Positions 7,216 through 25,443 of a DNA stretch of 40,110 bases are shown here, piece by piece (position 1 is the stretch's first letter; each line of letters opens with the position of its first letter). The notes under the pieces were generated by a model. The model was not told the DNA's origin, ran no database searches, and worked only from the letters and a program-made list of their open reading frames with translations. Origin of the DNA: a virus (lineage: Duplodnaviria > Heunggongvirae > Uroviricota > Caudoviricetes); IMG/VR virus record IMGVR_UViG_2897369580_000002; one strand, written 5' to 3'. The position numbers and the translations under genes are program-made.

Positions 7216-7542
7216 ATGACAAAACTTGGATTCGTGATGAGAGGTCCGGTAAGAAGCGGAACTCATGCAAAGCGTAGCAAGAGTCGTATTTTTACTGGTA
7301 AGGTTGTAGCACGTAAATCAGCTATTGGCTCGTTCAATAGTGAAAATGCGGCATTGCGCCATATTTTTATCAGCACAAAGCCAAGAGCATCCGCTGATGT
7401 GCATACAATGTCTATTCCTATCACAAAGAATATCAAGCGGATAAAAAAGCTCTCATCTGCAGAATCAAAAGAGATATCTTTCCGCCAGCTTAACTCATTA
7501 GAAACGCATATGAAGGAAGAGGAATTCGATGTTTTTGAGTGA
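7216..7542 (+). CDS. hypothetical basic protein (AT-rich cargo operon, gene 1)
   Basis: ATG with RBS GGAG; Lys/Arg-rich; visibly lower GC than surrounding phage DNA; overlaps next gene. Confidence 0.5.
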   Translation: MTKLGFVMRGPVRSGTHAKRSKSRIFTGKVVARKSAIGSFNSENAALRHIFISTKPRASADVHTMSIPITKNIKRIKKLSSAESKEISFRQLNSLETHMKEEEFDVFE

Positions 7543-8041
7543 GTATAGCGGGAAGGTTATACCTACTGGTGAGTTTAAAACTGATGACTTTCTGATTTCG
7601 CTAAAAGATGCTTTTAAACAACACTGGCGTCATGGTCATCATCCTGATCTGGGAAAAGATACTCTTTTTGAAAGACCAGACGAAGTATTAGGCTTCCATC
7701 TCAGAAAGGTTCATGTCAATATTGGTGAATATGCATCATATTCATACTCATGTACTGAACAGTGTTGGGATGAGTGGTCATATGGATTGATTGATGAACA
7801 AGGAAATTACAGGCCAAAACCAACCAGTAACGCATATCTCATATATGCAGTCAATGAAATAAGAGATGCAGCCTTACTAGCTTATTGGGACCCGCCCGCA
7901 CACACCAAAGCTAACGCAAAAGTTTGGATGGATTCCGTATTGAATTTCACAAAATTATTTCATGAACGAACGAATACAGCTCCACTTAGTAGAAATGTTT
8001 ATCCGTGGGATTATTCGTACAAATCCAAAAAGCCTGCATAG
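7529..8041 (+). CDS. hypothetical protein (AT-rich cargo operon, gene 2)
   Basis: ATG with RBS AAGGAAGAGGAA; start overlaps end of gene 1 (coupled); aromatic and His-rich; no recognisable motif. Confidence 0.5.
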   Translation: MFLSEYSGKVIPTGEFKTDDFLISLKDAFKQHWRHGHHPDLGKDTLFERPDEVLGFHLRKVHVNIGEYASYSYSCTEQCWDEWSYGLIDEQGNYRPKPTSNAYLIYAVNEIRDAALLAYWDPPAHTKANAKVWMDSVLNFTKLFHERTNTAPLSRNVYPWDYSYKSKKPA

Positions 8042-8122
8042 TAGTTTTTTATGGACGAAACAAAAGTCAGTGCTACACTCATTGACGCCACATTGAGGTG
8101 GCTTATAGATGGAAATTTCACA

Positions 8123-8284
8123 ATGAAAAAAGCATTTGCTGCACTGTTCGTTTTGTTGTCTCTGGTAGCTTCAACTCAGGCCTTTGCCGGTCGTTGTCAG
8201 CACGACAGCGACACTGCTGCTGACGGCTCCCGCTGCGGTGGGCGTTCTGCGGATTCCCGCCCGGGTGGCGGTGGCATTCGTTAA
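8123..8284 (+). CDS. small secreted Gly/Ser/Arg-rich peptide with two Cys
   Basis: Internal ATG gives MKKAFAALFVLLSLVASTQAFA signal peptide then ~31-aa mature peptide; weak RBS; alternative TTG/ATG start at 8051 in ORF track. Confidence 0.35.
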   Translation: MKKAFAALFVLLSLVASTQAFAGRCQHDSDTAADGSRCGGRSADSRPGGGGIR

Positions 8285-8306
8285 AAACAAGGCCGCGAAA
8301 GCGGCC
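8281..8306 (-). terminator. rho-independent terminator ending the minus-strand structural transcript
   Basis: GGCCGC-gaaa-GCGGCC hairpin, followed on the minus strand by TTGTTTTTAA. Confidence 0.6.
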
Positions 8307-8307
8307 T

Positions 8308-8319: not shown

Positions 8320-8320
8320 G

Positions 8321-8881
8321 CTACATTGATATATGATTCATAAAGTAGCTTAAAGATTTACTTCCCAGAAAAGAAATTTCTTTTCCTGGATATGTCGCAA
8401 TAATTGAGCATGACTTATCCCCGTTAGAGGTAACAAATCCTGAATAACCTACTTGTTCTTTACCATTTTGTTGCTTGGCTAAAAAGTAGAGGTAGCTTAT
8501 CTTTTTGCCCTCTGGGTAAAACTCTGCCAAACCAGTATCGGTGATTGAATATTTTATTCTCCCGCCTTGAGTAACGTTTTCCATCTCAAGTTTAGCTATG
8601 TCTTTTCTGTTGTATTCAGCATTGATTTTCCTTTCGAAATCAATGTTGTTTTCAAATGAGTAGGAAGCAACAGTCTGAATAGATGGGAACACGTTTATCT
8701 GGATGCCCCCACAGTCGGCACAGGTATAAAGGTATGAATCAGATGGAATCCCCATAAAAGAAAACTGAGTTACCTTAAATTTATCGCTATCTCCAAAGTA
8801 TTGAAGTTCGCATTTAACATTTTGCCCTGCAAAAGAAAATGCAGACATCAATATTGAAACAAAAAATATAATTGCCTTCAT
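8321..8881 (-). CDS. secreted protein of unknown function (AT-rich, end of structural operon)
   Basis: ATG; signal peptide MKAIIFFVSILMSAFSFAG; AT-rich coding; directly follows the 849-aa internal protein. Confidence 0.55.
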   Translation of the reverse strand: MKAIIFFVSILMSAFSFAGQNVKCELQYFGDSDKFKVTQFSFMGIPSDSYLYTCADCGGIQINVFPSIQTVASYSFENNIDFERKINAEYNRKDIAKLEMENVTQGGRIKYSITDTGLAEFYPEGKKISYLYFLAKQQNGKEQVGYSGFVTSNGDKSCSIIATYPGKEISFLGSKSLSYFMNHISM

Positions 8882-8883
8882 TA

Positions 8884-11433
8884 TTATTTACCTAGCATGA
8901 ACTGCGATGGTGGGATCAGAAAGTCGTTCCCCTGCTCACGCTCAACACGGCGCTGATAACGCTCAAGAGAGCCTGGGTCAAGGGCATCTTGTATCCGGTT
9001 CAATATTAAACCATTCATCGCCGTACGAAGCCAGAACACGTTGAGGAATGGCGTATTGTCAAGTGCCGTGCGATACCAGTCACCCAAATCTGCATCCCCT
9101 CTCGTGGTCTGCTGGAGCAGCGTGATAATGCTGTCAGCGTTCGATGCTGCTGGCCCCATTAGCGACGTAACCGGCCCGGCCCCCATGCGGTTGACCTCAC
9201 CAAACATGAAGTCACCCAAGATGCCAAGACCGCCCCCCTGAGATGCGGCTGCGAGAAACGTCTTGGCATCTGCCGGGCGTGGTGTTTGCCCTTTCAGCAT
9301 GAGTTTTGACTGCATGGAGATATAACCAAACATAGTCGCCCAGACAAAGAGGTTTGCAGCACCAAGGAAAGCCCCCTTCCCGTTACGTAGCAGCGCATTC
9401 GTCAGCGATCCGGTTTTCGACTCACCAAGCCCAGCAGGAATATAACCACGCCCGAATACTTCGCGTCCTAGTACGTTCTGCATGAAGCTTGCAGTGAACG
9501 ATTTGTACTGACCAGCGAATCGTATTGCTTCCCCAGCCACCGTTCCTGGCACCGTGCCCATCTTCATAAACGCCTGCGTGCGATCGCCAGGCTCTGACAT
9601 GGCGATATTCAGACGGTCAAGGATGTAGCCGCGCAACTGCCCTTCCAATTGATCGCGTGCGTCAGCGATAGCGCGCTGCGTTGGTTTGATCCCCTTACTC
9701 TCTACATAACCGGCAATCACTTCGTCAGGCACGCCGCGGATGCCGCTGGTCGTCATGAACTTACGACCTTCGCTATCGGCCATGTCCATGTTGCGAAAAA
9801 TTTCCCACTCACGTTCGCCAATACCGTGCAGATCCAGCACGCGTCGCAGGTCTTCCGGTAGCCGCGCATGAGACTGGTCAGCATTCTTTGCAAGCCAGTT
9901 GGTTATCATCATGGCGTTGCTGTTGCGACCGCTCTCGGTCCAGAAGTTCATGAGGTTGTACTTAAAGAAAAGCTGCTGCGCGCGACCAAGCTTTCCATTC
10001 AGCGTGTCATCACCAGATATGCGCCGGATGATTTCCTGCGTCATGGAGTCGGAATAAACTCCGATAGAGGAAAGGATCTCTTTCTGCTCCGCGCTGTTGT
10101 AACGCGTGAAGCGGCCTCTCATAGCACCAAGCAACGCCTGCATAAAATTCTGCCCTTGGTAGCGCATCTCGGTAGCGGCGATAGGCACGTCGTTAAACGA
10201 TGAGATTACCGCGCCACCAAGTTGGCTCATACGCAACCAGCCGCGTACAGCCGCCGACGCATTGGCCCAGCCTACGCTGCCAGGAATATTTAGCGAGCCG
10301 TCAACCTGCGGCATTACGGTACGGTTAATGCGACGCACCTTCGTCATGTAGTCAGCCAACGCTGCCGGTCTTCCGGATTTGCTGATATCTTCAGCAATGG
10401 CGTCCGTCAGGTACTTAAACATGTTCTGTGGGTTAGTGCCCAGTACGCGCATCATGCCCGTTGTGCGGGCAGCGCTGTTTAAGCCACCAAACAGCGCTTC
10501 TCGCAGGCTGCCGGTGCCGAATTGCTGGTTGTACTCGTGCCACGAGATACCATCTTTGAAGTGCAAAATTCGCTCTTGGCTGGCGCGTTTAGCTGCGTTC
10601 GCCGATCCCTTAAAGCCATTCATCCAATCGGGCTTTTCAGATGTAAGATGCACGCCGGAAGCCAGCCCGTTATAAATGTTACGCATGAACTGCTCGCGGT
10701 CAGCCACGCCGTCAAAAGTGCGCTCATCAAGGCGCGGGAGAATAGCATTTCGCCATGCTTCATAACCTGCGGCGCGGATCTTCATGATGTCGTGTGACTG
10801 GCGCACTATATAGCCCGGCTCTTTGCGTATCCATGCCCCGGCGCGGTTCTCATCAATGCGCGCAGTTTCCTGCCATTTCATGATGATTTGTGCAGCGCTT
10901 ACGGATTGCTTTGTCATACCGTCAGTTGACTGCCCGCGCCCTATGCGCCACATTGCATCGGCAATTTCCCGGTCATTGCTGCCGCTGGCGATGAATTGCA
11001 CCAGCCCGGCACGGTCAAAATCGTAGTTGATACCGGAATGATACTTGCCGCGCAGTTGCGCCACCTCCGAAGATACCGACCGGCGGGCGCCGGTACGCGC
11101 ATCGTTGCGGCCAACCAGCATTGCTTCAAGCCCGATATCCGGGCGGTCTTTCCAGATAGTACGAAGCTCTCTAAGTCGTTGTGCGGCAATACGGGCGTCG
11201 ATTGCCTTATTGCGAGCCTCAATCTGTTTTGCCAGCATATCGGCATTGCTCAGTTCTTCCGCTGCGCGCATCGCGGCCTCTTCCAGAGACAGCGCCTCAT
11301 TGGTCGCCAGAATTCGCCTAGTGGTGTCGTTCATGTCACGCACCAGCGACTCCATCTCATCGGAAGAAAGCTCGCGACCAGCGGCAGCATTTACACTGCG
11401 CTCGCACTGCGTCAAAAATTCGTTTGCTGCCAT
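8884..11433 (-). CDS. large internal virion / ejection protein
   Basis: ORF-track start at 11436 is GTG; ATG at 11433 with RBS GGGGGA overlaps the stop of the upstream gene (ATGA); large mostly helical protein in the structural block. Confidence 0.6.
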   Translation of the reverse strand: MAANEFLTQCERSVNAAAGRELSSDEMESLVRDMNDTTRRILATNEALSLEEAAMRAAEELSNADMLAKQIEARNKAIDARIAAQRLRELRTIWKDRPDIGLEAMLVGRNDARTGARRSVSSEVAQLRGKYHSGINYDFDRAGLVQFIASGSNDREIADAMWRIGRGQSTDGMTKQSVSAAQIIMKWQETARIDENRAGAWIRKEPGYIVRQSHDIMKIRAAGYEAWRNAILPRLDERTFDGVADREQFMRNIYNGLASGVHLTSEKPDWMNGFKGSANAAKRASQERILHFKDGISWHEYNQQFGTGSLREALFGGLNSAARTTGMMRVLGTNPQNMFKYLTDAIAEDISKSGRPAALADYMTKVRRINRTVMPQVDGSLNIPGSVGWANASAAVRGWLRMSQLGGAVISSFNDVPIAATEMRYQGQNFMQALLGAMRGRFTRYNSAEQKEILSSIGVYSDSMTQEIIRRISGDDTLNGKLGRAQQLFFKYNLMNFWTESGRNSNAMMITNWLAKNADQSHARLPEDLRRVLDLHGIGEREWEIFRNMDMADSEGRKFMTTSGIRGVPDEVIAGYVESKGIKPTQRAIADARDQLEGQLRGYILDRLNIAMSEPGDRTQAFMKMGTVPGTVAGEAIRFAGQYKSFTASFMQNVLGREVFGRGYIPAGLGESKTGSLTNALLRNGKGAFLGAANLFVWATMFGYISMQSKLMLKGQTPRPADAKTFLAAASQGGGLGILGDFMFGEVNRMGAGPVTSLMGPAASNADSIITLLQQTTRGDADLGDWYRTALDNTPFLNVFWLRTAMNGLILNRIQDALDPGSLERYQRRVEREQGNDFLIPPSQFMLGK

Positions 11434-13130
11434 CACATCCCCCGGTTAATCATACAGGCGGCAAATGCCCGGAAAGCGTTGCTCATGCTATTGTCGCTGG
11501 CGTCGGCACGAATATCATTGAGTTTCTGGCGCAACGTGGTCGCAAGATCAGGGTTATCGACAGCGATATCGTCAAGCAGGGCGTTACTCAGGTTGAGCTC
11601 GTTATCAAGGTCTGCAGCGGCAGCGGTAATTTCATGATCTGCCTTTTGCGTTTCTTGATAAACCCGATCGGCTGTTTCGCTTGCTGGGCGAGCCGTTTCA
11701 TCAACCTGCCGTGCCGGGTTCTGTATGCGATGGATGGCGCGTTCACGCAGTGCTGGTTTGTGCAGTTCATAGAAGGGCTCAACATCTGGGCTACGTCCTT
11801 CCATCATGTGTGCCAGCGCAGCGCGATACGCCTGCTGGTTCACGTTCCAGTCAGCATCCCTGATGGCGCTTGCGGCAGTGCGAACTGCGCCAGCGACCGG
11901 CGACATCTGCATGCCGTCCAGGATCTGCTGCGCACGCTCGGAAATGGTGACTTTCAGGTCGTCGGGGATCTCGCCGCGGGAAATCTGAGACTGGCGCCAG
12001 CGCGCCTGCTCTGCTGTCGCGTTCTGCTCCAGCGATGTGTTGATCTCCTGATTGCGTGCAGCGATGGCGTCTTTCTCGGCCTGAATCTCTTTCAGTGCCC
12101 TAGAGCGCGCATCCTTAAACTTCATCCGCTGCCCCTGATACTTTTTGGTGCGCTGCTGCAGCGTCGCATCAAGCGAGTCAGCATGACGTTGATTAGCCGC
12201 AAGCTCGGCACGCAGGTCGGCAACGTTACCGATCTGCCCGCTCTGTAACTCCTGCTGGCGCGCCATATAGTCAGGAACCACGTCGTCATAAGCTCGGCTG
12301 TATGCGTAGCTCTCCGCTTCACTGGAAATGGCCGCCGCCAGATCTGCGTTAGCGCCAACCTCAGGGATATTCACGCCCGCCGGAATGTTGTCAGGCGTTA
12401 TCACTGGGGTTGGCTGCGCATCGCCAGAAAACGCCGGGGACTCTCCCGTTGCAGCATCGGGAACGCGACGCGGTCGCACGATATCGGCGATAAGGCCGCC
12501 GCCGGCATGCATTAGACCGCCAGCCATCGTGTTAAAGAAAGTACTTTCCAACGCGTTGCTATAGGTGAAGTCGTCACCTTCCGCCGCCGCTGCCAGCCCG
12601 GTAAGCGGCACGGTCACCAACGCCTGCGCTGCCCCCATGCGTGCACCAGCAACAAATCGCTCGCCAAATCGGCCAAGCACAGAAGCCGCCTTTGCTTCTC
12701 CAGCGAACGGAACCAGCGCCAGCGCCACGTTACCAGGATCTGCCATTGAACCAGCTAGGCTGGCTGCGAAATTAAGCGGCGTGGCTACCCACCCGCTCGG
12801 TGCCGACATCGCGATCTGCTGGCGTGCCAGAGAATCTTTGCGTTCGGCAATAACATGATCGAGAAAAGCCTGCGTAACGCCAGAATCTGGCACGTTTATG
12901 CTCTTTACGCCGTACTGCTTCAGGAGCTCATCCGCTTCCTGCTTACTGATAACTGTAGAGTTTGGGTCATTCGCCAGCGAGTCGGCCTGCGCAAAGCGGT
13001 AGCCGGACATGACCGGCCCCTCTTCAAATCCCTGCTTAAGGGAAGAAAGCAGCGATTCGCCAAGCCCTGCTGGCGCGTTGCCAATTGGCTGGTTAATTCC
13101 CTGTCCCGGATCATCTGTGTAAATTGGCAT
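11433..13130 (-). CDS. internal virion / ejection protein
   Basis: ATG start overlapping the upstream stop (TAACATG); Ala/Gly-rich N-terminal part and charged helical C-terminal part. Confidence 0.55.
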   Translation of the reverse strand: MPIYTDDPGQGINQPIGNAPAGLGESLLSSLKQGFEEGPVMSGYRFAQADSLANDPNSTVISKQEADELLKQYGVKSINVPDSGVTQAFLDHVIAERKDSLARQQIAMSAPSGWVATPLNFAASLAGSMADPGNVALALVPFAGEAKAASVLGRFGERFVAGARMGAAQALVTVPLTGLAAAAEGDDFTYSNALESTFFNTMAGGLMHAGGGLIADIVRPRRVPDAATGESPAFSGDAQPTPVITPDNIPAGVNIPEVGANADLAAAISSEAESYAYSRAYDDVVPDYMARQQELQSGQIGNVADLRAELAANQRHADSLDATLQQRTKKYQGQRMKFKDARSRALKEIQAEKDAIAARNQEINTSLEQNATAEQARWRQSQISRGEIPDDLKVTISERAQQILDGMQMSPVAGAVRTAASAIRDADWNVNQQAYRAALAHMMEGRSPDVEPFYELHKPALRERAIHRIQNPARQVDETARPASETADRVYQETQKADHEITAAAADLDNELNLSNALLDDIAVDNPDLATTLRQKLNDIRADASDNSMSNAFRAFAACMINRGM

Positions 13131-25366: not shown

Positions 25367-25443
25367 GTGGTATTAGCTCAGTTGGACAGAGCAACCGCCT
25401 TCTAAGCGGTTGGTCGCAGGTTCGAATCCTGCATGCCACGCCA
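25367..25443 (+). tRNA. tRNA-Arg (anticodon TCT), phage-encoded
   Basis: Hand-folded cloverleaf: acceptor GTGGTAT/ATGCCAC, D-arm GCTC..GAGC, anticodon stem ACCGC/GCGGT with loop CTTCTAA, T-arm GCAGG-TTCGAAT-CCTGC, discriminator G, encoded CCA. Confidence 0.9.

Follow-up and report, generated by a model that had tools for sequence, protein, structure and literature searches.

The window, by which we mean the whole stretch of 40,110 nucleotides that was analysed, contains a prophage of the epsilon15/phiV10 type (genus Uetakevirus) inserted beside yfgI. The operon on its - strand encodes, in this order, the terminase, portal, capsid and tail tube proteins, a T7-gp14-like protein, an SLT-domain protein, a 565-aa protein, an 850-aa protein and a 186-aa protein, whose gene, referred to hereafter as ORF186, has an ATG start in the open reading frame list (8321..8881, - strand) and is followed by a terminator. 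The 850-aa protein (8884..11436, - strand; phrog_684, virion structural protein) is the counterpart of epsilon15 gp17, a homologue of the internal virion protein D of T7 according to Hardies et al. (PMC4819975). We call it the gp17-like protein, or IVP-D (the analogue of T7 gp16); its gene is the fixed 5' boundary of the slot that ORF186 occupies, and lies itself outside the cassette. A tRNA-Arg gene (anticodon TCT; 25367..25443, + strand) is present between the head and terminase genes, in the direction opposite to that of the structural operon.

The junction between the gp17-like gene and ORF186 (8882..8893, - strand) reads ...GGT AAA TAA TA ATG: the stop codon TAA (8886-8884) is separated by a 2-nt spacer (8883-8882) from the ATG of ORF186 (8881-8879), with a weak Shine-Dalgarno-like AGG(T) at 8893-8890, 9 nt upstream of this ATG. 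Such a junction leaves no room for an intergenic promoter. On the other side, the intrinsic terminator of the late/internal-protein operon (8280..8307, - strand) has a GC-rich stem of 7 bp that closes a loop of 4 nt, and a T-run follows it; the hairpin AGGCCGC-TTTC-GCGGCCT plus TGTTTTTAAC, at 8307..8290 on the - strand, lies 13 nt beyond the stop codon of ORF186 and is the fixed 3' boundary of the slot. phiV10 has the same hairpin, annotated there as a terminator, and in epsilon15 a near-identical copy follows gp18.

An earlier note, made from the letters of this DNA alone, had described ORF186 as a gene of clearly lower GC, coupled to the last internal-protein gene and preceding the operon terminator. 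The 2-nt spacer and the position of the hairpin bear out the last two points, and the composition bears out the first: the GC content of ORF186 is 35.7% (GC3 34.8%), against 55.2% (GC3 60.9%) for the 850-aa gene upstream, 57.9% for the gene before that and 50.1% for the window.

Consensus sigma-70 promoters were sought on the - strand between 8882 and 10000, that is, over 1.1 kb upstream of ORF186, and none was found; a relaxed scan returned a single 8/12 match, 173 nt upstream. The same kind of scan found no promoter for the slot genes of epsilon15 and phiV10, and no conserved internal promoter was detected in the 3' end of gp17 of the window, phiV10 and epsilon15. These scans use the sigma-70 consensus, so that a weak or non-sigma-70 promoter may have escaped them. 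Since ORF186 has no detectable promoter of its own, the sequence predicts that it is co-transcribed with the late operon and hence expressed at a late stage of the lytic cycle. ORF186 is thus predicted to be appended to the late operon both transcriptionally and translationally. The missing promoter is the chief uncertainty about the function of this gene.

The product of ORF186 is identical to RefSeq WP_000643933.1, annotated as "hypothetical", and an identical CDS occurs in E. coli ATCC BAA-2469, whose chromosome matches the window at this place with 100% identity over 901 bp. The exact sequence is present on at least 1000 contigs, from E. coli, Klebsiella, Citrobacter and Salmonella, clinical strains among them, and the PHROGs assignment is phrog_11983 (unknown function). 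At the base composition of ORF186, the calculated probability that a stop-free run of 186 codons arises by chance is about 1e-6, and dN/dS against homologues of 93-94% identity is 0.10-0.15, which indicates that the gene is under purifying selection. For these two reasons, we consider that ORF186 is a real, selected gene.

A predicted periplasmic protein of PsbP/Mog1-type fold

The first 18 codons of ORF186 (8828..8881, - strand), which encode MKAIIFFVSILMSAFSFA, are predicted to specify a Sec/SPase I signal peptide, based on a rule-based reading and on the conserved layout. The N-terminus consists of M-K, 15 hydrophobic residues and then S16-F17-A18|G19; the Kyte-Doolittle mean of residues 1-19 is 1.85, and Ser at -3 and Ala at -1 agree with the -3/-1 rule, so that cleavage is predicted at SFA|G. 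The n-h-c layout of a signal peptide is kept in 19/19 members of the family, although little of its sequence is conserved. The predicted mature protein, G19-M186, has a mass of about 18.9 kDa. There is no lipobox; the possibility that the protein is a lipoprotein was considered and rejected for this reason, and also because it is a Lys that precedes Cys24.

Four cysteines, Cys24, Cys54 and Cys57 (which form a CxxC motif) and Cys158, are invariant in the family down to 29% identity. From these features we infer that the product of ORF186 is exported, cleaved after Ala18 and before Gly19, and disulfide-bonded in the periplasm. The secretion proposed in the earlier note is therefore in keeping with the predicted n-h-c layout and SFA|G site, and its periplasmic placement is supported, at the level of prediction, by three features: the signal peptide, the invariant cysteines and the fold, which periplasmic binding and immunity proteins also have.

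This fold was obtained by structure prediction, which the note had suggested. AlphaFold gave a pLDDT of 86.1 and a pTM of 0.80; residues 1-19 alone are not confidently modelled, and confidence begins at about residue 21. The confident model was computed with 18 sequences, including five of 29-44% identity that came from an exhaustive HMM search, while an alignment of 14 close homologues gave a pLDDT of only 44. ORF186 is predicted with confidence to fold as a PsbP/Mog1/DUF1795-type alpha-beta(-alpha) sandwich, which carries the four invariant cysteines. The best fold match is to cyanobacterial PsbP (11.8), followed by plant PsbP/PnsL1 (about 10), the T6SS Eag chaperone SciW and Mog1 (9.7 each), LpqN (8.9), the T6SS immunity proteins Tsi3 (8.1) and TplEi (8.0), the inner-membrane lipoprotein DcrB (7.8) and the T6SS immunity protein PA3488 (7.2). 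Foldseek returned the same set, and the two significant viral matches are phage lipoproteins. The PsbP/Mog1/DUF1795 sandwich is a non-enzymatic protein-binding scaffold; in bacteria, its periplasmic members occur in association with membrane complexes (PMC7716261). The kinship of ORF186 with PsbP and Mog1 is at the level of the fold, with nothing detectable in the sequence: none of 18 members of the family was matched by the Pfam DUF1795, PsbP and Mog1 models, even at E<=10. Since this fold is functionally promiscuous, it does not point to any particular target of ORF186.

The family is small. Its sequences among 5.8 billion proteins group into 17 clusters at 90% identity. When 1.84 billion representatives were scanned exhaustively by HMM, 8 clusters at 50% identity were recovered, and one further relative (P0043), from another profile search, raises this number to about 9. 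The family is represented in E. coli, Klebsiella, Citrobacter, Salmonella, Cronobacter, Enterobacter, Hafnia, Yersinia and Aeromonas, that is, in Enterobacterales and Aeromonas. Its members are all 185-191 aa long with a signal peptide, and the genes all have a low GC content (0.31-0.43). The most divergent relatives, 29% identical, are found at loci L185 (1263..1829) and L013 (861..1421).

No family match was found for ORF186 in Pfam, NCBIfam and PADLOC, nor was there any significant match to known exclusion, immunity or defence proteins in Pfam, NCBIfam, PADLOC, PHROGs and PDB sequences. According to a tblastn search of 50,697 phage records (INPHARED), no isolated phage encodes it, and a scan of genome contigs with one single peptide pattern gave no confirmed relative. 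Two weak similarities were discarded: that to NlpE (E 0.033, 13.6 bits against a cut-off of 243) is noise from the signal peptide or the CxxC motif, and that to Llp of T5 (E 0.23) is an alignment that covers the signal peptide only.

A variable slot at the end of the late operon

The slot between gp17 and the terminator was surveyed in 149 IMG/VR contigs that contain either type of gp17; the gp17 match reached the 3' end of the gene in 146 of them, and the sequence downstream was readable in 144. A tightly coupled gene, which starts 1-16 nt past the stop codon of gp17, is present in 140 of these 144 contigs. The GC content of these slot genes is 0.33-0.46, against 0.50-0.60 at the 3' end of gp17, and they encode peptides with 2-3 TM segments, signal-peptide proteins or lipoproteins. 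An all-against-all BLASTP comparison sorts the products into at least 15 mutually unrelated families. The number of families is a sturdier figure than the counts of contigs, because many of the contigs are near-identical prophages. The ORF186 family occupies the slot in 16/64 contigs of its own gp17 type and in 0/80 of the phiV10 type; among complete E. coli genomes, 55 contain ORF186 and 62 the gp17 type of the window.

In epsilon15, the slot is occupied by gp18 (64 aa, 2 TM), whose gene overlaps the stop codon of gp17, in phiV10 by p21 (46 aa, 2 TM), in phiv142-3 by Orf12, a polytopic membrane protein, and in E. coli N21 by a 123-aa secreted protein, next to a gp17 3' end that is 98.5% identical to that of the window. 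The slot is empty in two distant phages of the same gp17 type, Pseudomonas Ab31 and Vibrio phage 1.182.O. Megablast matches of the window to other Uetakeviruses stop at 8320-8323, at the stop codon of ORF186. ORF186 is an exchangeable accessory cassette in a hypervariable "envelope-protein slot" of epsilon15/phiV10-like temperate podoviruses. The view that it is accessory rather than a core component of the virion, already suggested as a possibility in the earlier note, therefore holds: unrelated genes sit in the same slot beside a near-identical gp17.

Among the other occupants, one deserves to be described separately. In contig L072 (IMG/VR 2834917809_000002), the slot protein is a 118-aa signal-peptide protein whose reading frame starts 2 nt past gp17; it occurs in two contigs and belongs to the Rap1a/Tai4 family of periplasmic T6SS immunity proteins (PF18602, E 1.3e-12, 48.5 bits against a cut-off of 27.7). 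It is a T6SS immunity homologue that rides on a phage late operon. The other slot alleles that were tested carry the PHROGs label "unknown function". Lipoproteins of 137-160 aa with four spaced cysteines (phrog_8691, unknown function) recur in the slot behind both types of gp17, at loci L162, L077 and L011 (10636..11049) and related ones. In L011, the lipoprotein gene is downstream of a homologue of ORF186, which means that the slot can take two cargo genes.

The history of ORF186 can be compared to that of its neighbour. In the six loci with enough flanking DNA (34-92% identity), the homologue of ORF186 is always found directly 3' of a gp17-like gene. Between L007 and the window, the gp17 proteins are 86.5% identical and the slot proteins 43.5%; conversely, the gp17 of L005 is of the unrelated phiV10 type (25% identity) and its slot protein is 69% identical to ORF186. 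Between the window and L027-L029, dS is 0.27-0.32 for ORF186 and 1.2-1.4 for gp17. These comparisons indicate that the evolutionary history of ORF186 differs from that of its gp17 neighbour. Relatives also exist as stand-alone genes: P0043, 29% identical, with the signal peptide and the cysteines kept, is placed after a 350-nt intergenic region near TraI_2 and MPTase-PolyVal genes, and P0023 is found directly after a SymE toxin gene and a terminator. The TraI_2 relaxase/MPTase-PolyVal neighbourhood of the former looks like a conjugative element. Since P0043 and P0023 are outside phage operons, a protein of the ORF186 type works without a virion module. The different history and these two relatives in non-phage mobile elements, which give further backing to the accessory reading, lead us to conclude that ORF186 is an exchangeable envelope cargo gene and most probably not a part of the virion.

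The ejection proteins of the window themselves form a set that differs from that of phiV10 and epsilon15: in the region 8884..13130 (- strand), the gp17-like protein is ~23-25% and the gp16-like protein ~22% identical to the phiV10 type. The isolated phages whose internal virion proteins are nearest to those of the window are Stenotrophomonas BUCT708 (49%) and Pseudomonas Ab31 (45%). It appears, from the comparison of the gp16- and gp17-like genes, that otherwise similar Uetakevirus-type prophages swap their ejection module.

A Salmonella enterica island at the yicC locus (L006/L007, 1233..16709) contains an integrase gene, a split SLT gene, gp16- and gp17-like genes, a 185-aa homologue of ORF186 (ORF185, 43.5% identity), AlpA and a DUF927 primase-like gene. 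Its gp16-like and gp17-like genes are intact (75% and 86.5% identical to those of the window). We considered that this island may be a satellite that purposely carries an ejection module and a slot gene, which would have spoken for a functional link between the two, and rejected this idea because the SLT gene is 5'-truncated and split (554 + 299 aa). The island looks like a remnant of a Uetakevirus prophage fused to a satellite-like integrative element.

Last, we note that other accessory genes lie on the + strand, between the terminator and the tailspike gene; this block encodes a gp19-like protein, a Bro-N antirepressor, a 108-aa ORF, a YafO-like toxin and a 53-aa secreted peptide. The 108-aa ORF (7216..7542, + strand, GC 0.41) overlaps the 170-aa YafO-like ORF (7529..8041, + strand, GC 0.39), which matches Pfam YafO with an E value of 9.5e-4, below the cut-off, and is a YafO family toxin in RefSeq; the two look like a toxin-antitoxin pair. 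The 53-aa peptide, rich in Gly, Asp, Ser and Arg (MKKAFAALFVLLSLVASTQAFA|GRCQHDSD...; 8123..8284, + strand, or 8051..8284 from an upstream ATG), is encoded by a gene that converges on the terminator of ORF186, and matches phrog_14503, a membrane associated protein of the moron category. Its similarity to the His-Xaa-Ser repeat protein HxsA3 is sub-threshold (E 0.021, 14.6 bits against a cut-off of 65); the HxsA3 family was recently tied to the blocking of phage DNA entry in the periplasm (PMC13128918). This gene may be a second envelope cargo gene.

Possible functions of ORF186

We propose that ORF186 plays a protective role, and we estimate the probability of this reading at roughly 45%. The periplasmic exclusion or host-interaction factor suggested in the earlier note is a reasonable guess, for which the argument is one of analogy, in position and function, with sieA. 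The protein would bind or inhibit another protein that enters the periplasm from outside, in the first place the ejection or SLT proteins of superinfecting relatives. Once exported to the periplasm, cleaved and disulfide-bonded, ORF186, which has no enzymatic motif, would act as a stoichiometric binder or inhibitor of a periplasm-acting protein. Its likeliest targets would be the ejection proteins that cross the envelope or cut the cell wall when related phages superinfect the cell, which would result in superinfection exclusion, or an "immunity-like" state; a periplasm-acting toxin delivered by competitors may be a second possible target. The evidence that we count for a protective role consists of the variability of the slot, the separate history of the gene, its low GC in every homologue, the Rap1a allele, the stand-alone relatives and the positional parallel with sieA. 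The late expression expected for ORF186 counts against it, because known exclusion and immunity genes are expressed by the prophage or early in infection. Also, no co-variation is seen between the slot protein and the ejection proteins of the phage that carries it, although a specific inhibitor might be expected to show it; SieA likewise lacks this sort of specificity for ejection proteins (PMC10883804).

One may go further and consider that the whole slot after IVP-D is a hotspot of an arms race, filled with at least 15 interchangeable envelope-defence genes, of which ORF186 would be the first soluble periplasmic one, a protein of PsbP fold that prevents the trans-envelope ejection conduit of superinfecting phages from assembling or functioning, or blocks their SLT enzyme. 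The mechanism of ORF186 would then be unlike that of the membrane-embedded SieA, Imm and gp15. We regard this broader proposal as speculative, and are inclined to doubt it in this complete form.

Another hypothesis is that ORF186 is an orphan immunity protein against a periplasm-acting T6SS effector, a bacteriocin or a T4SS toxin that competitors deliver, in which case the benefit to the host would be one of lysogenic conversion and be unrelated to phage entry. The PsbP/Mog1 fold and the presence of a Rap1a allele in the slot are in its favor. However, the sequence of ORF186 matches no immunity family, no effector gene is found near its homologues, whose contexts are all phage operons or other mobile elements, and no promoter was found from which the gene could be expressed in a lysogen. 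Moreover, most of the other slot alleles are tiny 2-TM peptides, which are unlike immunity proteins. We find this explanation unlikely.

The coupling of the gene to the late operon, with gaps of 1-16 nt and no promoter of its own in every lineage examined, and the targeting of its product to the envelope, would be explained if ORF186 were a helper of the late cycle, made along with the virion proteins, that conditions the envelope of the infected cell, for example by blocking lysis-from-without or secondary injections shortly before lysis, by tuning the timing of lysis or by limiting the loss of progeny on debris. The Llp protein of T5, for instance, is thought to limit the loss of progeny on cell debris. 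On the contrary, ORF186 is dispensable, being replaced by unrelated proteins beside the same lysis cassette and gp17, its distant relatives work as stand-alone genes outside phages, and a soluble periplasmic protein is badly placed to mask receptors on the outer surface. Such a role is, in our opinion, quite improbable.

It is much harder still to see in ORF186 a part of the ejection apparatus, as a fourth internal virion protein, or an Eag/DUF1795-like chaperone that would shield the hydrophobic segments of the internal proteins before packaging. The signal peptide and the four invariant cysteines of 19/19 members point to a periplasmic protein, while the cytoplasm is where capsids are assembled; 75% of the phages with this gp17 type lack the gene or have another in its place, and neither Ab31 nor Vibrio phage 1.182.O has it; homologues of ORF186 are found behind both of the unrelated types of gp17, and relatives stand alone. 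As to a chaperone, the gp17-like neighbour contains no 19-mer with a Kyte-Doolittle mean >=1.4. In all likelihood, ORF186 is not a building block of the virion. Finally, a non-functional or decaying hitch-hiker ORF, which truncated or frameshifted copies (P0017, P0022) might bring to mind, can be practically dismissed, considering the dN/dS of 0.10-0.15, the length and the four cysteines kept down to 29% identity, the confident prediction of the fold and the exact sequence on at least 1000 contigs.

The protein is common, yet it is annotated as hypothetical everywhere. If ORF186 does protect the cell, by blocking the entry of phages or neutralising periplasmic toxins, it should affect the host range of phages used in therapy and the competition between Enterobacteria, and a soluble periplasmic mechanism would be added to a class of defence that is known mostly from membrane proteins. 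If it has no phenotype, ORF186 is an ordinary accessory ORF. The slot itself, from the stop codon of gp17 to the conserved terminator, offers a simple genomic criterion by which candidate envelope-defence genes can be collected from the prophages of podoviruses, and this criterion may be more useful than the single ORF186 gene.

Comparison with known systems

Proteins that share the fold of ORF186 differ from it in several respects. In the DUF1795/PsbP-Mog1 superfamily, ORF186 is singled out by its four invariant cysteines, including the CxxC motif, and by the lack of any Pfam match. DcrB is an inner-membrane-anchored lipoprotein; ORF186 lacks a lipobox. The T6SS immunity proteins Tsi3, TplEi and PA3488/Tli have a Mog1/PsbP fold like that of ORF186, but ORF186 has no sequence homology to them, belongs to a phage late operon, and has no cognate effector gene next to it in the loci examined. 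The Eag/DUF1795 chaperones are cytoplasmic binders of the transmembrane helices of a neighbour, unlike the members of the ORF186 family, which all have a signal peptide. Nor does ORF186 have the lineage-wide conservation of the internal proteins of podoviruses, since it is present in 16/64 and 0/80 contigs of the two gp17 types.

Closer parallels are found among exclusion proteins (SieA, Imm, Sp, HK97 gp15, Llp, Cor, Ltp), with which ORF186 shares a predicted location in the envelope or periplasm; homology to a characterised member was sought and not found. Spackle (Sp) of T4 is a small periplasmic protein, exported by means of a signal peptide, that binds and inhibits a cell-wall-degrading protein of superinfecting virions, the tail lysozyme gp5. 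The operon upstream of ORF186 encodes an SLT-domain protein, which is a candidate target that would parallel that of Spackle. However, Spackle has a helical fold, which is different from that of ORF186, and is the product of an early gene of a virulent phage; the Pfam T4_Spackle model does not match ORF186.

The P22 gene sieA resembles ORF186 in that it is an optional gene of a temperate podovirus, located past the last ejection-protein gene, whose product is in the envelope. In P22-like phages, sieA is optional and highly diverse, and is found after the last ejection-protein gene and before the tailspike gene; SieA targets ejection proteins, which blocks the delivery of DNA (PMC10883804). P22 SieA is a polytopic inner-membrane protein expressed by the prophage; sieA is read from a promoter of its own and converges on gene 16. 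ORF186, in contrast, encodes an exported protein that is soluble, runs in the direction of the late operon, to which it is fused, and is related to SieA neither in sequence nor in fold.

Morons such as HK97 gp15, lambda lom and bor, and the cor/llp lipoproteins are, like ORF186, extra genes of deviant composition that are inserted between conserved structural genes and encode envelope products; some relatives have them, while others lack them or have a different gene instead, and several confer exclusion. ORF186 is similarly present or replaced between conserved flanks, and has a distinct base composition at all homologous loci. Classic morons are autonomous, with a promoter of their own, and are expressed by the prophage, whereas the sigma-70 scans of ORF186 gave no promoter apart from the single 8/12 match 173 nt upstream, and its terminator is the conserved one of the operon. 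Taken together, ORF186, a candidate exclusion or immunity factor that belongs to none of the defined families, is a new, uncharacterised family within a known kind, that of the accessory, moron-like envelope proteins of temperate phages.
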